Source of the DNA: Fidelibacterota bacterium
Lineage (GTDB): Bacteria > Fidelibacterota > Marinisomatia > Marinisomatales > JAHJCW01
Length of the DNA stretch: 64,000 nucleotides
Assembly: GCA_042577295.1 (NCBI GenBank)
Contig: JBHPEE010000001.1
Location: 10,506 to 74,505 of the forward strand
Direction of reading: 5' to 3'
The notes under the pieces were generated by a model that was given only the letters and a program-made list of their open reading frames with translations, had not been told where the DNA came from and did not search any database. Shown here in pieces: positions 10,501 to 32,546 of the stretch. Position 1 is the first letter of the stretch, and the number at the start of each line of letters is the position of its first letter. The position numbers were made by a program, and so were the translations under genes.

Positions 10501-10817
10501 TTGCAACAAAAACAATGACACAAGTAGACAGAAATAGACAAATATATAGTTCTGTTATAGCACTACTTGTCTTAGAGATTCTCTAATGCACAGTGGCCTT
10601 TTAAGCCATTGTTCGAGCGTTCGCGTTGCTCCGGAGTATCGCCTAATTTCCCCTCTCAAACATAGTTTTTCAGAGTTATTTTTCATTTTCGCAGTGTATG
10701 GGTATGGCATCATTGTGGGTCAAGTTAAAATATCAGACAATAATATCTTTGGACATATTTTTATATATTTTATGGACTAAACCTAAGTATTATAATAGTA
10801 ATTTATAATACAAATAG

Positions 10818-19343: not shown

Positions 19344-20630
19344 TTAAAGTATATTACCAACCAAATAATCTATTTCGTTTTCTATCAGCTTCACTGTAAC
19401 AATTCTATTTTGTAATTCTTCTGTCCCCGCTGCGATAACTTTTATATAATTTTCGGTGTGTCCCTGTATTTTGCCATTAAAATGTGTTTCAAATAGCACT
19501 TTTCTTTCTTGTCCGATAAATTTATTATAAAATGTTTTTTGCTTTGAATCGGATAATTCATGCAAAATTTTGCTTCGTTCTTTGCGTTGAGCATGGGTAA
19601 CAATGTTTTTGAAATCTAATGCTCTAGTATTGTCACGTGGGGAATAGGAAAATACATGTAAATATGAAATATCTAAACTATTTATGAAATCATACGTCTC
19701 TTGGAAATATTTTTCTATCTCGGTAGGGAATCCGACTATTACATCGACTCCAATACAACAATCAGGCATGACAGATTTTATTCTATCAACCCGTTCGGCA
19801 TATAATTCCCGCTGATACCGGCGACGCATATCTTTCAAAATTTTATTTGAACCGGATTGCAAAGGAATGTGGAAGTGCGGTACAAATAGTTTTGATTCTG
19901 CGATGAATTCAATTGTTTCTGTGGTTAATAGATTAGGTTCAATTGATGAAATTCTAATACGATCAATATTTTCTAATTTGTCTAATTCCTTTATTAAATC
20001 ATAAAATGTTTCATTTGTACCGCTTCCAAAATCACCAGTATTTACACCGGTTAGTACAATTTCTCGAGTATTTGTTTTATCAATTTTTTTTGCCTGCTGC
20101 ATCGTATTTTTGATATTATCACTTCTACTCTTTCCACGTGCTAAGGGAATTGTACAGTAAGTACATTCATAATCACAGCCATCTTGTACTTTGAGAAAGG
20201 TTCTGGTTCTTTCATCTCTAGAATAAGAAGAATGAAATTTGTCTAGTCTATCAATATTGCCATGATAATCAAACATACCTTTGTTATTTTGAAAATCCTG
20301 ATAATGTTCAAATACATTATATTTTTCATCATTGCCTAATACTGTACTTACCCCAGGTATAGATTTAGATTCTTCCAGATTTAATTGAGAAAAACATCCT
20401 ACCATAGCAATAAAAGCATCAGGATTGTTACGATTGGCTTGATGCACAGCTTTTCGACAATCTTTATCAGCATTTGCAGTAACAGTACAAGTATTTATTA
20501 CGTAGACATCTGCTTTGCAATTAAAATCCACTATATCGAATCCTTGATTTTGAAATTTGCGGGAAATGGTCGAAGTTTCAGCAAAATTTAATTTACATCC
20601 AATGGTCTTGAGTGCTATTCGTTTATTCAT
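19344..20630 (-). CDS. mtaB: Radical-SAM methylthiotransferase, MtaB/MiaB-like
   Basis: N-terminal MTTase domain (TIGCKLNFAETS), the radical SAM motif CDYECTYC, and a C-terminal TRAM-like region. The ATG at 20630 is preferred to the TTG at 20681. Confidence 0.8.
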   Translation of the reverse strand: MNKRIALKTIGCKLNFAETSTISRKFQNQGFDIVDFNCKADVYVINTCTVTANADKDCRKAVHQANRNNPDAFIAMVGCFSQLNLEESKSIPGVSTVLGNDEKYNVFEHYQDFQNNKGMFDYHGNIDRLDKFHSSYSRDERTRTFLKVQDGCDYECTYCTIPLARGKSRSDNIKNTMQQAKKIDKTNTREIVLTGVNTGDFGSGTNETFYDLIKELDKLENIDRIRISSIEPNLLTTETIEFIAESKLFVPHFHIPLQSGSNKILKDMRRRYQRELYAERVDRIKSVMPDCCIGVDVIVGFPTEIEKYFQETYDFINSLDISYLHVFSYSPRDNTRALDFKNIVTHAQRKERSKILHELSDSKQKTFYNKFIGQERKVLFETHFNGKIQGHTENYIKVIAAGTEELQNRIVTVKLIENEIDYLVGNIL

Positions 20631-20727
20631 AATCTCATAAAATTTGGGCGGGAATTTCGCCAAAAAAGATGTCTCAAACAAGTCATGAACAGCGCAATAT
20701 ATTCTTAATGAGTGTTAAGTTTGCTCC

Positions 20728-24180: not shown

Positions 24181-24342
24181 GAAAGAATTTCCATAGTTTA
24201 AATCATAGAAAAAAATATTTCTTTAGATAAAATAAAAAATTATTAAAAAGACCTTTTTGTCTTGTAATGGTGTAATTATTGTTTTTAAATTCTGTAGTGT
24301 ATACAGCAGTATTTCAGCATTGGCAAATACAGATACAATAAT

Positions 24343-24834
24343 ATGAATGACAATTTAATAGAAAATCCTACTACTCCATTATTCCCATTAAGGGTAGCGG
24401 CAGACTTAACGAGTACTTCAGTCTATGCTCTCAGACAATATGTTGATTTAGGTCTAATCATTCCGTATAAAACCCCTACTAATCGAAGATTATATTCCAG
24501 GGTTGATATCCAAAGGATTCTATGTATCCGAAGATATCTTGATGAGTACGGTTTAAACACTGCCGGAATCAAGGCACTTTTTGCTGCAGTTCCATGTTGG
24601 CTCATAAAACCCTGTACGGAATCCGATTGTGAACAATGTGATGCGTATACATCATTTACCCAACCGTGTTGGCAAGTATCTGTTAAAGGACCTACTTGTC
24701 AAGACGTTGATTGTCGTGTTTGTAAAGTTTACCGATTACCAGAAGAGTGTAATGATTTAAAAACAATATTTAAAAAATTTAATGAAGAAATGAATTATCA
24801 AAACAATACAAGTAAGGTAAATAGTAATAAATGA
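24343..24834 (+). CDS. MerR-family HTH regulator with C-terminal nine-cysteine domain
   Basis: N-terminal MerR/HspR-like wHTH (RVAADLTSTSVYALRQYVDLGLIIPYKTPTNRRLYSRVDIQRI). C-terminal Cys pattern C-x5-C-x4-C-x2-C-x9-C-x9-C-x4-C-x2-C-x8-C. Its stop overlaps the next gene's start (ATGA). Confidence 0.7.
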   Translation: MNDNLIENPTTPLFPLRVAADLTSTSVYALRQYVDLGLIIPYKTPTNRRLYSRVDIQRILCIRRYLDEYGLNTAGIKALFAAVPCWLIKPCTESDCEQCDAYTSFTQPCWQVSVKGPTCQDVDCRVCKVYRLPEECNDLKTIFKKFNEEMNYQNNTSKVNSNK

Positions 24835-26060
24835 AAAAATTAGTCATATTAGGAGCCGGTACAGCCGGCACAATGATTTTAAATAAATTAGAACCTGTCC
24901 TGGATAAAGAGGATTGGCAAATAACCATAGTAGATCAATATGAAACACATTATTACCAACCAGGCTTTCTGTTTATTCCCTTTGGTATTTATAACAAAAA
25001 AGATGTAATAAAACCAAAGCGAGACTTCTTTCCATCAAGCGTTGATGTTATTTTCGATTCAATTGATAAGATACAACCAGATGAAAATAAAGTTCTCTTT
25101 GCAAACAACAAAGTGTTGAACTATGATTATTTAATAATAGCAACTGGATGCAAGATTAATCCAGGTGAAACTGAGGGATTAGCAGAAGACGGTTGGCACA
25201 AAAATATATTTGATTTTTATACAATTGAAGGAGCAATAGGATTAGCACATTTTCTTAAATATTGGGAAGGTGGAAAAATGGTGTTGAATATTACGGAGAT
25301 GCCGATTAAATGTCCCGTCGCACCACTTGAATTTGTATTCTTAGCTGATTGGTGGTTTACGGAACAGGGGATTCGTGATAAAGTAGAAATTTCATTTGTT
25401 ACACCTTTGGATGGGGCTTTCACTAAACCACGTGCATCTAAAGTATTTGGAGACTTTCTATCTAAAAAAAATATAAACTTAATTCCTGATTTTAGCATCA
25501 GCCGTGTTGATCATGAAAATAATAAAATTATTTCTTGGGAAGAGAAAGAAGTTCCATACGATCTATTAGTTACTATCCCAACCAATATGGGCGATGAATT
25601 AATTGAGCGTTCCGGCATGGGCGATGAATTAAATTTTGTGCCTACTGACAAACAAACACTTCAATCTAAAAGCCATAAAAATATCTTTATTATGGGCGAT
25701 GCAACCGATTTACCGAGTTCAAAAGCCGGGTCTGTAGCTCATTTTGAAGCTGATGTATTGTTTGAGAATTTCCTTAGTGCAATTGAAAATAGACCATTGA
25801 GAGCAAAATTTGATGGACATGCTAATTGTTACATTGAATCAGGTTTTGGTAAAGGTATTCTAATAGATTTTAATTATGATACTGAACCGTTACCGGGGAA
25901 ATACCCCCTACCGGGAGTTGGGCCATTCTCCCTTTTGGAAGAAACAAAAATGAACCACTACGGGAAAATAATGTTCCGATGGATGTATTGGAATTTGTTA
26001 TTACGCGGAGCCGAGCTGCCAATAGAATCACAAATGTTAATGGCGGGCAAGAGAAAATAA
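24831..26060 (+). CDS. sqr: Sulfide:quinone oxidoreductase-type FAD-dependent oxidoreductase
   Basis: Rossmann motif ILGAGTAGT. SQR-like redox Cys contexts PIKCPVAPLEF and FDGHANCYIESGFGKGILIDFNYD (compare SQRDL ...CPLVTGY...). C-terminal amphipathic segment. Confidence 0.75.
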   Translation: MKKLVILGAGTAGTMILNKLEPVLDKEDWQITIVDQYETHYYQPGFLFIPFGIYNKKDVIKPKRDFFPSSVDVIFDSIDKIQPDENKVLFANNKVLNYDYLIIATGCKINPGETEGLAEDGWHKNIFDFYTIEGAIGLAHFLKYWEGGKMVLNITEMPIKCPVAPLEFVFLADWWFTEQGIRDKVEISFVTPLDGAFTKPRASKVFGDFLSKKNINLIPDFSISRVDHENNKIISWEEKEVPYDLLVTIPTNMGDELIERSGMGDELNFVPTDKQTLQSKSHKNIFIMGDATDLPSSKAGSVAHFEADVLFENFLSAIENRPLRAKFDGHANCYIESGFGKGILIDFNYDTEPLPGKYPLPGVGPFSLLEETKMNHYGKIMFRWMYWNLLLRGAELPIESQMLMAGKRK

Positions 26061-26061
26061 A

Positions 26062-26751
26062 ATGGCTGATCAAAACTTAGAATTACAATTACAGTCGATC
26101 GATCGGAAATTAGATCTAATTTTTGAAGAATTGGCCGTGGTTCGCAGGCAACGAGAAGAACTGAACGAATTAAAACAAGATTTAACAATTATTGCAAAAG
26201 ATTTATTTAGTGCAGCAATTGATGAATTCGAAGATATTGCACCGTTTGTTCAAACCGGAGATTTTTTGCATCTGTTGAAGAAAATTCTACAAAACACTCA
26301 AAATATCACTATGGTAATGACAAAATTTGAAAGTGGGTTGGATTTCTTTGCCGATGCAAAACCTGTTGGCAAAGAATTATTTAATGATACTCTAGAAAAA
26401 TTAAATGAATTTGATCAAAAGGGCTATTTTCAATTTATCAAAGAGTTAATAAATGTAGCGGATCGAGTTGTAGAACATTTTTCAGAAAAAGATGTCAAGT
26501 TACTTGGTGATAACATTATTACAATCCTTGAAACTGTTAAAGGCTTAACGCAACCGGAAATGTTATCGGCAATGAATAATGCCGTTGGTATTTATCAGAA
26601 TCTTGATCCCAAAGATACACCTCAGTATTCTATTTGGAAAGTGATGCGTGAACTAAATACACCAGAAATGAAAAGGGGTATCGGTTATGTGATCACCTTT
26701 TTAAAGAAAATTACAGCAGAACAAGAAAATCAAAATAAACAAAGGAGTTAA
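26062..26751 (+). CDS. Helical protein, DUF1641-like (tentative)
   Basis: N-terminal coiled coil plus a helical C-terminal half. The assignment rests mainly on the recurrent pairing of DUF1641 proteins with SQR/NDH-2-type flavoproteins. No diagnostic motif was verified by eye. Confidence 0.4.
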   Translation: MADQNLELQLQSIDRKLDLIFEELAVVRRQREELNELKQDLTIIAKDLFSAAIDEFEDIAPFVQTGDFLHLLKKILQNTQNITMVMTKFESGLDFFADAKPVGKELFNDTLEKLNEFDQKGYFQFIKELINVADRVVEHFSEKDVKLLGDNIITILETVKGLTQPEMLSAMNNAVGIYQNLDPKDTPQYSIWKVMRELNTPEMKRGIGYVITFLKKITAEQENQNKQRS

Positions 26752-26753
26752 AT

Positions 26754-27071
26754 ATGGTAGCAAGAGAAATTGCCGGGGTTACAGTTGATGTTGATATTGA
26801 TGGTTACATGACTGATTACAAATCATGGAATAAAGAAATAGCCGAAGCCTTTGCAAAAGAACAAGGAATTGATGAATTAACTGATCGTCACAATATCGTT
26901 ATCGAATTTATGCGTAAGGAATTTGAAGAAAACGGTACCGGACCATCAATACGGAAATTAAATAAACAAAGCGGTGTTTCTACTAAAGAATTATACCAGC
27001 TTTTCCCAGGTGGGCCTGCAAAGAAAGCCGCACTTATTGCCGGAATACCAAAACCTCAAGGTTGCATTTAA
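26754..27071 (+). CDS. TusE/DsrC-family sulfur-relay protein (single C-terminal Cys)
   Basis: 105 aa. The C-terminus LFPGGPAKKAALIAGIPKPQGCI matches the TusE/DsrC signature (LFP.GPAK.A..IAG.PKP..C-x). The second, upstream DsrC Cys is absent. Confidence 0.85.
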   Translation: MVAREIAGVTVDVDIDGYMTDYKSWNKEIAEAFAKEQGIDELTDRHNIVIEFMRKEFEENGTGPSIRKLNKQSGVSTKELYQLFPGGPAKKAALIAGIPKPQGCI

Positions 27072-27086
27072 GAATAGGAGAAAATC

Positions 27087-27599
27087 ATGAGTGAATATGA
27101 GCCAATAAAAAAGGTTTCGCTTGTTTGTGCTAAGGGTGGATTGGAAGAAGTTTATCCATCATTGATTATGGCCAACGGCGCCCGCATGGAAGGAATTGAA
27201 GCATCTATTTTCTTTACATTTTTTGGTCTGAACGCTATTGTTAAAAAAACACATGGAAACTTAAAGGTTGCCACTGTCGGTAACGCTGCGTTAAACCTTG
27301 CGATGCCAATGTTAAAAATGCCGATTACAATGCCATTCCCAACATTATTAGGTGCAATTCCTGGAGTATCAAATTTTGCAACTTGGTTAATGAAAAGAGA
27401 AATGGAAAAACTAGATGTGCCACCCGTTGGCGAATTTTTAGAAATGATGAGCGATGCTGGTGTCGAAATTTATGCCTGTAAAATGACTGTTGATATGTAT
27501 GGTTTAACTATGGATGATTTTGTGCCACAGGTTAGTGGAATAATGACAGTTGGCGAATTCTATGAAAAATCTGCCGGTGCTCAAATAATTTTTACATAA
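27087..27599 (+). CDS. DsrE/DsrF-like (COG2210-type) sulfur-transfer family protein
   Basis: 170 aa with a DsrE-like fold pattern (VSLVCAKGGLEEVYPSLIMANGA...FFTFFGL) and a conserved Cys in VEIYACKMT. Confidence 0.65.
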   Translation: MSEYEPIKKVSLVCAKGGLEEVYPSLIMANGARMEGIEASIFFTFFGLNAIVKKTHGNLKVATVGNAALNLAMPMLKMPITMPFPTLLGAIPGVSNFATWLMKREMEKLDVPPVGEFLEMMSDAGVEIYACKMTVDMYGLTMDDFVPQVSGIMTVGEFYEKSAGAQIIFT

Positions 27600-27642: not shown

Positions 27643-27680
27643 AATTGCGGGCAATTTTCAAATAACCAATTGCCCGCAAT
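27643..27680. terminator. Intrinsic terminator between the convergent sulfur operon and the T9SS-cargo gene
   Basis: ATTGCGGGCAATT - 11-nt loop - AATTGCCCGCAAT, a perfect 13-bp stem. An A5 run lies 5' on the plus strand, which is a T5 run after the hairpin on the minus strand. Confidence 0.7.
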
Positions 27681-27690
27681 CAATATAATA

Positions 27691-28872
27691 TTATTTAAGC
27701 AAGACCATTTTATTGGTCTGTATAAATCCTTCAGCTTCAATCTGATAAATATAAACACCGGCATTTACCAAATTACCTGTATAATCTCTGCCATCCCAAT
27801 TAATTGATCTACTCCCTACCGGTTCGATTTGGTTAACCAATGTAATAATTTCTCTGCCTAATAGATCGAATACTGAAATCTTTATATTTGATTCTCTGCT
27901 AACATCGTAAAAAATTGTCGTAGTCGGATTAAACGGATTTGGGAAGTTTTGGTGTAATTGGAACTCATTTGGAATTGTAAGATTTTCTTCCACGCTAGAC
28001 AAATTTGTCAATTCATTAAACTCAACTGTATGATTATTAAAATTGGGGACAATTAGAATACCTGTGTTACTATTTGTTTTGGTTAATTTATTAATCTTTT
28101 CCGTGGAAGTTAATTCATGAAAAAAAATGTCTGCAGGTCCATCATGCTGGCTCGACACCAAATATGGATTATCAGATAAACCACCATTAACACCTGAAAA
28201 ATCACTATTAAATCTATAGATGGAATTATTTCCCCAATAAGATATATAATAATTACCAACCATATCGCATGCAATACCATCAGGCTGATCTAATGTGGTT
28301 GCTCTAATTTGTGATATTGTTCTATCACCCATATTGACAGCCATTATTGGTGCATTGCTTATCATCGGAACAAATATTAACCGGCTATTATCACCATCCC
28401 AATACAATCCATTCGGGTTTGATAAACTTTCAGCTAATGTTTCATATGATCCCCCGCTAATGATTAATTTGTATATTTTTCCTGTTTCTGTATCACTGAC
28501 AAATAAGATATCCGAATTGTCACTGGTTATATCATTTAAAAATCCCATACCTGGAATTACAACTGTTTGAGTAATTGTACCCGCAGGAAGCGATATAAAA
28601 ACAACGCCTTCATCTGCTGCTGCAAAAAGCGTATTTCCAATTATACAAAGTCCTCTAACACTTGTTAAATCACTATTCAATACACTTTTTGAATTAGTAT
28701 CATTAGCGTCAACTTTTAATATTTTCCCATCACCTTTATTTGAAACATAATAACAGTTATTGTTAGGATCATAAACAGCGCTTTCCGGATTATTGTAAGC
28801 TTGGGCGAATATTATATTAGAAAGGAATGGACATATAAATATTAGAAGAAATAATGACCTTATTAATTTCAT
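27691..28872 (-). CDS. Secreted beta-propeller protein (NHL/SMP-30-like repeats) with T9SS C-terminal sorting domain
   Basis: Signal peptide and repeated ...G.a.D..gn.Yvs... blades. The C-terminal ~80 aa (LHQNFPNPFNPTTTIFYDV...GVYIYQIEAEGFIQTNKMVLLK) is a Por secretion CTD. Confidence 0.75.
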   Translation of the reverse strand: MKLIRSLFLLIFICPFLSNIIFAQAYNNPESAVYDPNNNCYYVSNKGDGKILKVDANDTNSKSVLNSDLTSVRGLCIIGNTLFAAADEGVVFISLPAGTITQTVVIPGMGFLNDITSDNSDILFVSDTETGKIYKLIISGGSYETLAESLSNPNGLYWDGDNSRLIFVPMISNAPIMAVNMGDRTISQIRATTLDQPDGIACDMVGNYYISYWGNNSIYRFNSDFSGVNGGLSDNPYLVSSQHDGPADIFFHELTSTEKINKLTKTNSNTGILIVPNFNNHTVEFNELTNLSSVEENLTIPNEFQLHQNFPNPFNPTTTIFYDVSRESNIKISVFDLLGREIITLVNQIEPVGSRSINWDGRDYTGNLVNAGVYIYQIEAEGFIQTNKMVLLK

Positions 28873-29046
28873 ATTAACCTCCAATTAATAAATTGATAGG
28901 TTATAATATAAATATAGTTGGTGTTTTTAAAAAAAGGGAACTTAATCGAACAGATTAGCAGGCTTCATTGTCAGAAAATAAAATAATATTGTTTAATTTA
29001 CGGTAACCCATCGTGTCAATTGCCTAAAATTACTGTAAATTTGACC

Positions 29047-32546
<3,500 letters not shown>

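Follow-up and report, generated by a model that had tools for sequence, protein, structure and literature searches.

What is the function of a five-gene cluster in which a MerR-type regulator is followed immediately by a sulfide:quinone oxidoreductase (SQR), a DUF1641 protein and two small proteins of sulfur-carrier families, and which signal would switch the cluster on? The cluster is on the forward strand of the window, i.e., the whole stretch of 64,000 nucleotides analysed here, which covers positions 10,506 to 74,505 of contig JBHPEE010000001.1 of a Fidelibacterota bacterium. We propose, with somewhat more belief than doubt, that the five genes constitute one autoregulated transcription unit under a repressor, and that their products form a sulfide-oxidation module which faces the cytoplasm and includes dedicated proteins for handling the sulfur.

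From the list of open reading frames (ORFs) and the raw sequence of the window, five plus-strand ORFs are packed head to tail over 24343-27599, the junctions being, in order, an ATGA overlap at 24831-24834 and gaps of 1, 2 and 15 nt, with AGGAG inside the 15-nt gap. These coordinates and junctions reproduce exactly the packing, with an overlap and gaps of 1-15 nt, that was described in an original prediction made from the letters of the DNA, and the Cys contexts that it listed, namely the SQR pair (PIKCPVAPLEF and GHANCYIESGFG), the C-terminal PKPQGCI and YACKMT, are all found in the window translations. Profile searches also agree with its family assignments for all five products (MerR helix-turn-helix (HTH), SQR, DUF1641, TusE/DsrC and DsrE). 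The features are as follows.

24343..24834, plus strand: regulator with a MerR-type winged HTH and a C-terminal Cys-rich domain, 163 aa (Pfam, alignments, AlphaFold2 (AF2))
24831..26060, plus strand: type III SQR, 409 aa (NF049943, human SQOR alignment)
26062..26751, plus strand: DUF1641 protein (PF07849, now named HMP), 229 aa (Pfam, ForE1/YjgD 8rqz match)
26754..27071, plus strand: DsrC/TusE-family protein, TusE type, 105 aa (PF04358, TIGR03342)
27087..27599, plus strand: DsrE2-like (DsrE2B-like) sulfur-carrier protein, 170 aa (PF13686, 2QS7)
27644..27680, no strand assigned: hairpin with a 13-bp stem between convergent genes, -18.6 kcal/mol, z = -4.96

The hairpin at 27644-27680 is the probable bidirectional terminator that closes the operon.

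The arrangement is conserved. When the regulator alignment was scanned against one genome per species, 80 loci (denoted by L numbers below) were obtained, in which the five window proteins were then placed by tblastn. The full order regulator-SQR-DUF1641-TusE-DsrE2 with short junctions is present in 22 of the 80 loci, and 5 further loci end at contig edges. The titled records among them belong to Neomarinimicrobiota, Fidelibacterota or the Fibrobacterota-Chlorobiota-Bacteroidota (FCB) group, and many are unclassified metagenome-assembled genomes. The cultured Melioribacter roseus P3M-2 (L086) has the identical operon, running from MROS_1026 (regulator) down to MROS_1022, the same five-gene order occurs on a contig whose SQR is named Delongbacteria by NCBI, and in a Calditrichia genome (L042) a paralog of the regulator is located directly 5' of a 73%-identical SQR. 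Conservation of the gene order in relatives, which had been set as a check, is thus found in 22 species-level genomes as well as in M. roseus and on the Delongbacteria-named contig. Moreover, among 23-25 orthologues of the four structural proteins, the only strictly conserved Cys are C161 and C333 of SQR, C104 of the TusE-type protein and C131 of the DsrE2-like protein, which matches what is predicted for a Cys-based relay.

We now consider the enzyme at the entry of such a relay. As was originally claimed, the flavoprotein groups with the SQRs and not with NDH-2 or the CoA-disulfide reductases: on the NCBIfam model NF049943 ('type III SQR, selenoprotein subtype'), whose cut-off is 525, it reaches 670.5 bits, as against 20.6 bits on the CoA-disulfide reductase model, and its closest solved relative is human SQOR (E = 9e-44, 153 bits), with the NDH-2 structures at about 41 bits. 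The redox cysteines C161 and C333 align with both Cys of human SQOR and are retained in 25/25 orthologues, and the described type III SQRs have catalytic Cys159 and Cys331/339 (PMC13047784, PMC10989961). In Oceanidesulfovibrio marinus, the formation of zero-valent sulfur requires a type III SQR that has these two Cys as well, an enzyme that is oxidative in vivo (PMC10989961). By analogy with the characterised type III enzymes, the window SQR would oxidise HS- on FAD via C161/C333 and would reduce menaquinone. It is also noted that the window SQR passes the 'selenoprotein subtype' model, yet both of its redox positions are Cys and its reading frame contains no TGA; presumably some members of the NF049943 family carry selenocysteine at one redox site.

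How would such an enzyme reach its quinone? DUF1641 proteins form tetrameric tubes that scaffold soluble quinone reductases and carry quinone to them, the described partners being HucM and hydrogenase, ForE and formate dehydrogenase, and Ncp/YjlC and NDH-2 of Bacillus subtilis, with SQRs serving only as an outgroup in that work (PMC13524794). The window protein matches PF07849 at 34.6 bits (cut-off 21) over residues 187-217, contains no Cys and is predicted to have a long N-terminal helix and a C-terminal DUF1641 head. In searches of the PDB with the single sequence and with the profile, ForE1 (YjgD, 8rqz) alone was matched, weakly but specifically (E = 0.015 with the single sequence and 0.004 with the profile), while Ncp and HucM were not matched. 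Since this weak match is specific and the DUF1641 gene lies directly 3' of the SQR gene in every complete locus, a complex is the most economical reading, and the window SQR and DUF1641 protein are likely to form one. From the homology and the strict adjacency, the helical scaffold would be expected to tether SQR to the membrane and to supply quinone, as with HucM, ForE and Ncp. As in Huc-HucM, ForC-ForE and Ndh-Ncp, the DUF1641 gene is located immediately beside the gene of a quinone-reducing enzyme (PMC13524794); as in Ndh-Ncp, that enzyme belongs to the flavoprotein superfamily of NDH-2; and in M. roseus the SQR and DUF1641 proteins were both detected in the membrane fraction. By contrast with those systems, the partner here is an SQR, and the gene order is the enzyme first and then DUF1641. 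In Ignicoccus hospitalis, which reduces sulfur, the levels of a DUF1641 protein and of the flavoprotein adjacent to it increase along with those of an NrfD subunit of polysulfide reductase (PMC3149612), and given this the pairing of DUF1641 with flavoproteins may be old.

The sulfur leaving SQR could then be taken over by the two carriers. The product of gene 4 matches PF04358 (114.6 bits) and TIGR03342 (95.1 bits, cut-off 53.5) and reaches 64 bits versus a cut-off of 191 on the TusE equivalog model, so that it is not an equivalog of E. coli TusE; its nearest solved relative is a true DsrC of sulfate reducers (2xsj_C, E = 6e-25). True DsrC is defined by a two-Cys chemistry involving CysA and CysB, and DsrC sensu stricto is recognised by two C-terminal Cys, CysA and, ten residues upstream, CysB. 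The window protein has CysA as the penultimate C104, which is present in 23/23 orthologues, and has Ala at the position of CysB in comparison with 2xsj_C and 2v4j_C (...kgaCkmag... in 2xsj_C versus ...kkaAliag... in the window protein). It thus falls outside DsrC sensu stricto, the two-Cys chemistry of DsrC is not available to it, and we call it TusE-type for the reason that the CysB position is Ala; the family models and the DsrC alignment bear out the earlier description of a TusE/DsrC-like protein with the penultimate Cys only.

The last product matches PF13686 (DrsE_2) at 109.5 bits and stays under the equivalog level (NF047629, 103 bits versus a cut-off of 210). Its closest solved relative is 2QS7, which is SSO1126, a DsrE2B (PMC4175335), and the active-site C131 (YACKMT) aligns with FACSTT of 2QS7 and YACQLS of 3PNX and is kept in 23/23 orthologues. 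A DsrE homologue encoded downstream of SQR has already been named, as the 'DsrE4' group (PMC4175335). Like the members of the DsrE4 and DsrE2B groups, the window protein is of the DsrE family, has an active-site Cys and is genetically linked to SQR or to TusA and Hdr/Dsr-type modules; the difference is that the window protein, which resembles DsrE2B (2QS7) most, has a TusE-type partner instead of TusA. By analogy, sulfane sulfur from SQR would pass to C131 of the DsrE2-like protein, then to C104 of the TusE-type protein and then to a further acceptor, a direction that we take from the transfers DsrEFH to DsrC and TusBCD to TusE (PMC3397948, PMC4175335). As in those two systems, a DsrE-type Cys donor is combined with a DsrC/TusE-family acceptor using its penultimate Cys (PMC3397948); in contrast to them, the window DsrE-like protein is a single gene with no heterohexamer, and no DsrAB or MnmA partner was identified.

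What would control the five genes? The HTH of the regulator spans about residues 16-82 (PF13411, MerR_1, 39.7 bits with a cut-off of 21.6; PF00376, 28.5 bits with a cut-off of 28.2), its best NCBIfam matches are HspR-type HTHs, and no profile matches beyond residue 85. In a Foldseek search the AF2 model of the regulator (predicted local distance difference test (pLDDT) 81.9) matched by its HTH only, to the HTH domains of GlnR, TnrA, CadR, CarH and SoxR, and for the Cys-rich domain (about residues 84-137) no family was matched in Pfam and no solved structure by Foldseek. This sensor domain has the pattern PCW-x4-C-x7-C-x9-PCW-x8-9-C-x4-CRxCxVY. With residues 80-145 as the query, only 62 clusters were found among 1.84 billion representatives, most of them being proteins of 140-185 aa with the domain at the C terminus, as in the window protein, and the remainder shorter. 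Across 33 diverse representatives, C99, C124 and C127 are invariant, C85, C91 and C109 are present in 31-32 and C119 is found in 24. Past residue 82 the AF2 model contains only the short helices 85-88, 93-98 and 100-103 and a C-terminal helix 139-161, and its secondary structure lacks the long antiparallel coiled-coil dimerisation helix of the MerR family, for which reason we group the regulator with the atypical HspR, GlnR and CarH-like MerR proteins.

Two further Cys of the regulator deserve attention. Both C61 and C136 are Cys in 25/25 members linked to SQR and in 6/7 members linked to molybdoenzyme operons. Among the 33 representatives, both positions are Cys in 12, only position 61 in 3, only position 136 in 4 and neither in 14 (Fisher p = 0.0016, not corrected for phylogeny). 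The persulfide-sensing repressors CstR, SqrR and BigR are marked by a conserved pair of Cys that can be joined by a di- to tetrasulfide bridge, and the co-varying C61 and C136 may or may not be such a pair. Bacteroidales relatives (43-50% identity) have Tyr or Phe at both positions, no consistent neighbours and no sulfur context; with neighbours inconsistent and 61 and 136 aromatic, they were set aside as evidence on sulfur.

The region ahead of the regulator gene contains the following elements.

24248..24264, plus strand: family-specific element AAGACCTTTTTGTCTTG, an imperfect dyad overlapping the -33 TTG; its exact pattern occurs once in the window
24286..24292, plus strand: putative -7 box TAAATTC (FCB-type, TAnnTTTG-like), placed by alignment to orthologous promoters
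24290..24311, plus strand: predicted operator palindrome 1, TTCTGTAGTGTATACAGCAGTA, consensus TTCTGyn-N8-nrCAGAA
24313..24334, plus strand: predicted operator palindrome 2, TTCAGCATTGGCAAATACAGAT, starting 23 nt after palindrome 1 and ending 9 nt before the start codon

The orthologous upstream regions share this layout, with AAGACC-TTTTT-GTCTTG over the -33 TTG, then a TAATTTC box and then two 22-bp palindromes starting inside the box. In at least 20 orthologous promoters the conserved TAATTTC lies 19-21 nt after TCTTG, and the window TAAATTC aligns with it, from which we infer that 24286-24292 is the promoter box. The core CYTTTTRTCTTG has 36 matches in 504 kb (loci L001-L042), of which 23 lie less than 260 nt upstream of MerR genes of the family and 3 further ones precede such genes with misplaced starts in the ORF calls; the -33 element is common to the SQR-type operons and to operons of a second, PSR type that are described below. 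TTCTG-N11-13-CAGAA with at most 2 mismatches is found upstream in 22/25 SQR-linked loci, with a background of 0.33 sites per 211 nt, and in 16/25 SQR-linked loci two operator sites are exactly 23 nt apart. The strict form TTCTG-N10-13-CAGAA occurs nowhere in the window, whose own two sites each carry mismatches, and with no strict operator match elsewhere in the window no further regulon member was found in it.

The main reason for assigning the palindromes to the regulator is that the half-site covaries with the recognition helix: in the main SQR clade the helix LRQYVD goes with TTCTG..CAGAA half-sites, and in the PSR clade as well as in the basal SQR group LRMYEE goes with TCTAyAG..TAGA. The palindromes begin within the -7 box and extend about 45 nt downstream, and the sequence of the -35/-10 spacer is not conserved. 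A classical MerR operator is a dyad inside an over-long spacer of 19-20 bp, from which activation occurs by DNA distortion, and the layout found here is not of this kind; the palindromes cover the -7 box and the region where transcription would start, a position that suggests repression. Thus, of the Cys-rich MerR-type sensor that was originally predicted, the MerR HTH and the Cys-rich domain stand, and the classical MerR layout is lacking, there being no long coiled coil and the operator lying over and downstream of the -7 box. With HspR, GlnR/TnrA and CarH the regulator shares a MerR-type winged HTH with no long coiled coil predicted after it, and, like the repressors among them, it has predicted palindromic operators that lie across part of the core promoter. 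With SoxR it shares being a Cys-bearing MerR protein; the CX2CXCX5C motif of SoxR is absent from it. Based on these features, the gene 1 product, a putative repressor of a distinct Cys-rich MerR branch, would bind the two tandem palindromes over the -7 box and the early transcribed region, and a chemical change at its Cys would release it from the DNA.

The contexts of the regulator paralogs extend the argument. Where the sequence is readable (e.g. L030, L033, L035-L037, L039), a 49-56%-identical paralog heads a second operon containing a molybdopterin oxidoreductase with a twin-arginine translocation (TAT) signal, a 4Fe-4S protein, an NrfD protein, two YeeE/YedE halves and a rhodanese. By its predicted products this operon is a psrABC-type module with sulfur transport.

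L029-L037, L039 and L042 (e.g. L035:8001-14049): psr-type loci headed by the paralog, the L042 version being partial

The same operon looks like the Marinimicrobia 'psrABC' locus of the oxygen minimum zone literature, here with a predicted regulator and operator. In L008:2500-5715 the genes downstream of a 69%-identical regulator encode TusA (with the CPxP motif), then a membrane protein resembling DsrM/NarI, a DsrK/HdrD-like product and a DsrE2-like one, the DsrMK-type module occupying the place held elsewhere by SQR-DUF1641. In L081 a relative with 34% identity (P0064) is again directly followed, with an overlap, by a type III SQR. L078 has a relative beside another set of Mo-enzyme genes, L082 has one that is followed by a NarI/DsrM-like membrane protein, and in L083 a distant one precedes genes for a MamS/X-like protein and for a multihaem cytochrome. 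From the psr, TusA-DsrMK and SQR contexts, with L083 as the exception, the family is tied mainly, not exclusively, to quinone-linked sulfur redox modules. Single genomes hold 2-3 paralogs, which differ in recognition helix and in operator and each of which stands at the head of its own sulfur operon. A third paralog (42-45% identical, with C61 and C136 kept) is located directly after the DsrE2-like gene at L004:11242-11712 and L005:11250-11690, and the window holds only the terminator hairpin at the matching site.

When is the operon expressed? For M. roseus, proteomes of membrane fractions are available from maltose fermentation, strictly anaerobic at a redox potential (Eh) of -130 mV set with 1 mM sodium sulfide, and from aerobic acetate respiration without sulfide (PMC5492636). 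The order of the columns was checked on the Fe-only hydrogenases, which are fermentation-only according to PMC5492636. The values of the exponentially modified protein abundance index (emPAI) are as follows (all from PMC5492636).

MROS_1025 (SQR): fermentation 0, 0, 0; aerobic 0.38, 0.49, 0.45; adjusted p 0.004
MROS_1024 (DUF1641): fermentation 0.20, 0, 0; aerobic 0.71, 0.53, 0.58; adjusted p 0.021
MROS_1023 (DsrC family): fermentation 0, 0, 0; aerobic 0, 0.77, 0.36; adjusted p 0.30, not significant
MROS_1022 (DsrE2-like): fermentation 0, 0, 0; aerobic 0.78, 0.49, 0.54; adjusted p 0.017

The neighbouring outer-membrane protein MROS_1021 is abundant and unchanged between both growth conditions (PMC5492636). 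These data indicate that the four structural proteins are co-regulated and membrane-associated, and that anoxic, acceptor-free sulfide does not switch the operon on. Against the expectation that sulfide would be the inducer, sulfide alone thus appears insufficient in M. roseus, where the proteins are essentially aerobic-only and where O2, substrate and growth mode differ too.

Based on these results, the signal is probably not H2S itself, and is more likely to be either oxidised sulfur (persulfide, polysulfide) or a thiol/redox oxidation that arises only when an electron acceptor is available. Oxidised sulfur as the signal is in keeping with the sulfur context, with the presence of several paralogs and with the requirement for an oxidant; the invariant Cys and the expression under aerobic conditions agree with a SoxR-like redox switch. 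For a thiophilic metalloid as the signal, an arsenate result is the only hint: the catalytic psr/phsA gene of M. roseus (locus MROS_1773-1774) is preceded by the MerR-like MROS_1773, and its transcript is negligible in aerobic, microaerobic and fermentative growth and rises only with arsenate (PMC5492636). If MROS_1773 were a member of the Cys-rich family, the binding of As(III) to its thiols would have to be counted as a third possible signal.

The SoxR-like case can be taken further. It may be proposed that the regulator is a general sensor of redox state or O2, with an Fe-S cluster or a thiol-disulfide switch as in SoxR, so that the operon is on whenever respiration is possible and the sulfur specificity resides in the enzymes only. 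The six conserved Cys of the regulator do suggest a metal or cluster site, the M. roseus proteins appear in aerobic respiration and not in the reduced, sulfide-containing anaerobic medium, and the distant member in L083 precedes a multihaem cytochrome module rather than sulfur genes. If this proposal were true, however, 2-3 paralogs per genome with distinct operators on distinct sulfur operons would be needless, as all would read one redox signal. Also against it, the C61/C136 pair tracks the sulfur-operon context, and the M. roseus psr/phs gene behind MROS_1773, a possible member of the family, responded to arsenate and not to aerobic or microaerobic growth. We thus regard a general redox sensor as unlikely, though it is the alternative to be taken most seriously.

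Another possibility is that the module runs in the reductive direction, with quinol-driven SQR/DUF1641 reducing to H2S the sulfane sulfur (of polysulfide or S0) delivered by DsrE2/TusE, as a cytoplasmic partner of the Psr system that is under the sister regulator. This would accord with the control of psrABC-like operons by the same regulator clade and with L008, where a DsrM/DsrK-like pair with TusA and DsrE2 stands instead of SQR-DUF1641, DsrMK being a quinol-linked reductase of the DsrC trisulfide. The oxidation of sulfide by menaquinone is downhill according to the redox potentials, and hence the reverse would be uphill. Moreover, the joint rise in I. hospitalis of the DUF1641 protein and flavoprotein with the NrfD polysulfide-reductase subunit (PMC3149612), which also speaks for reduction, has to be set against the fact that M. 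roseus makes the proteins in aerobic acetate respiration and not anaerobically, and against the oxidative action in vivo of a bacterial type III SQR (PMC10989961). A reductive role is accordingly improbable in our estimate and is less likely than the oxidative module.

The neighbourhood of the operon bears on a last possibility. A cysteine desulfurase-like gene that the original prediction had mentioned as perhaps related is real (Aminotran_5, 263 bits; ORF 29020-30516 on the plus strand, first ATG at 29047); its 498-aa product is SufS-like at 269 bits, under the cut-off of 475. Since it accompanies the operon only in the closest three relatives (L001, L004, L005), it lies outside the conserved module and was rejected as a member. 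On the minus strand, 19344-20681 encodes a radical-SAM UPF0004 protein, which we read as a MiaB/MtaB-like methylthiotransferase; this gene and the SufS-like one are sulfur-using enzymes flanking the region, and their linkage to the operon is limited to the nearest relatives. The convergent neighbour at 27691-28884 (minus strand) encodes an SMP-30/gluconolactonase-like beta-propeller with a C-terminal sorting tail of the FlgD-Ig and type IX secretion system (T9SS) type; the tail is consistent with an FCB-group origin, and the gene adjoins the operon in close relatives only. In M. roseus the operon is followed by the gene of the FadL/Toluene_X-type outer-membrane protein MROS_1021 (L086:9971-11242), and a similar gene, a fragment judged by eye, follows the distant regulator relative P0083 at L085:672-1043; that MROS_1021 takes up hydrophobic sulfur species is only a guess. 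A biosynthetic relay, in which SQR sulfur on the TusE-type protein would be used for thiolating tRNA or building cofactors and not for energy metabolism or detoxification, would agree with a TusE-type carrier having CysA only and with the nearby MiaB/MtaB-like and SufS-like genes, but it is very improbable, and less likely than the sulfide-oxidation module, given that those neighbours are conserved in the closest relatives only, that the carrier remains well under the TusE equivalog cut-off and has true DsrC as its nearest relative, and that the regulator family is shared with respiratory sulfur operons.

Several points weigh against the sulfide-oxidation module that we prefer. The AF2 monomer of the DUF1641 protein, from a 34-sequence alignment, is all-helical and unreliable (pLDDT 36.7), and the sequence match to ForE is weak. 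The C-terminal helices of SQR are kept and align with the C-terminal region of human SQOR, so that SQR may bind the membrane unaided. The closest characterised DsrE type, DsrE2B of M. cuprina, reacted with no sulfur compound that was tried (PMC4175335). Within the 64-kb window no downstream acceptor and no sulfite-forming enzyme is encoded, and a scan of 20 larger ORFs elsewhere in the window gave housekeeping functions only, with no persulfide dioxygenase, Sox, Dsr or Hdr genes. Finally, the comparison in M. roseus varies O2, sulfide, carbon source and growth mode together and hence does not identify the signal.

Beyond the sulfide-oxidation module itself, a bolder version would contain two linked firsts. 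The Cys-rich MerR branch would be a new class of reactive-sulfur sensor, in which sulfane sulfur bridges C61 and C136 beside a six-Cys metal or cluster site, and a DUF1641-scaffolded SQR would hand its persulfide directly to DsrE2 and then to TusE, the carriers replacing polysulfide release or a small-molecule acceptor. For both to be true together is a tentative idea, on which we would not wager at present.

How does the module compare with what is known? In Staphylococcus aureus the cst operon comprises SQR, CstA (with rhodanese, TusA-like and DsrE/TusD-like domains) and CstB under the control of CstR. As there, SQR is co-transcribed with TusA/DsrE-type Cys sulfurtransferases under a dedicated local repressor containing Cys, if our reading of the window is right. 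By contrast, CstR is CsoR-like while the window has a MerR HTH with a new Cys-rich domain, the cst SQR is of type II versus type III here, and the window operon is without persulfide dioxygenase or rhodanese and adds DUF1641 and DsrC/TusE-family proteins. Thus SQR-sulfurtransferase operons under a Cys-based repressor, a DsrE4 group 'downstream of SQR' and DUF1641 scaffolds are already known. Literature searches on a MerR-type persulfide sensor, on the five-gene operon and on SQR with DUF1641 found nothing specific, and a C. tepidum differential RNA sequencing (dRNA-seq) preprint makes no mention of CT0876 or of a MerR regulator; the earlier remark that no MerR-family sulfide or persulfide sensor is known agrees with these searches, which yielded none. 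As far as the literature searched shows, the five-gene combination and SQR as a partner of DUF1641 appear to be new, and so does a Cys-rich MerR branch governing sqr-, psr- and dsrMK-type operons in the sampled FCB-group phyla.

Marinimicrobia are among the most abundant bacteria of oxygen-deficient ocean water, and their role in the sulfur cycle has been argued almost wholly from psrABC genes (PMC8359478). At the head of both their psr- and their sqr-type operons stand paralogs from a single, so far uncharacterised family of regulators, and an operator is predicted for each, which offers a route to finding out when these operons switch on. Moreover, the module suggests SQR as a fourth class of enzyme using the DUF1641 quinone-conduit scaffold, and it suggests a protein-to-protein exit route for the sulfane sulfur derived from SQR. 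The identical operon in the cultured M. roseus (MROS_1022-1026), which is on or off at the protein level, makes these proposals directly testable there. If the bolder version holds, the SQR, Psr and TusA-DsrMK operons would each be switched on their own by Cys-rich MerR paralogs whose operators have diverged, and no regulator family would matter more than this branch to the dissimilatory sulfur metabolism of Marinimicrobia, Ignavibacteriota and Calditrichota.

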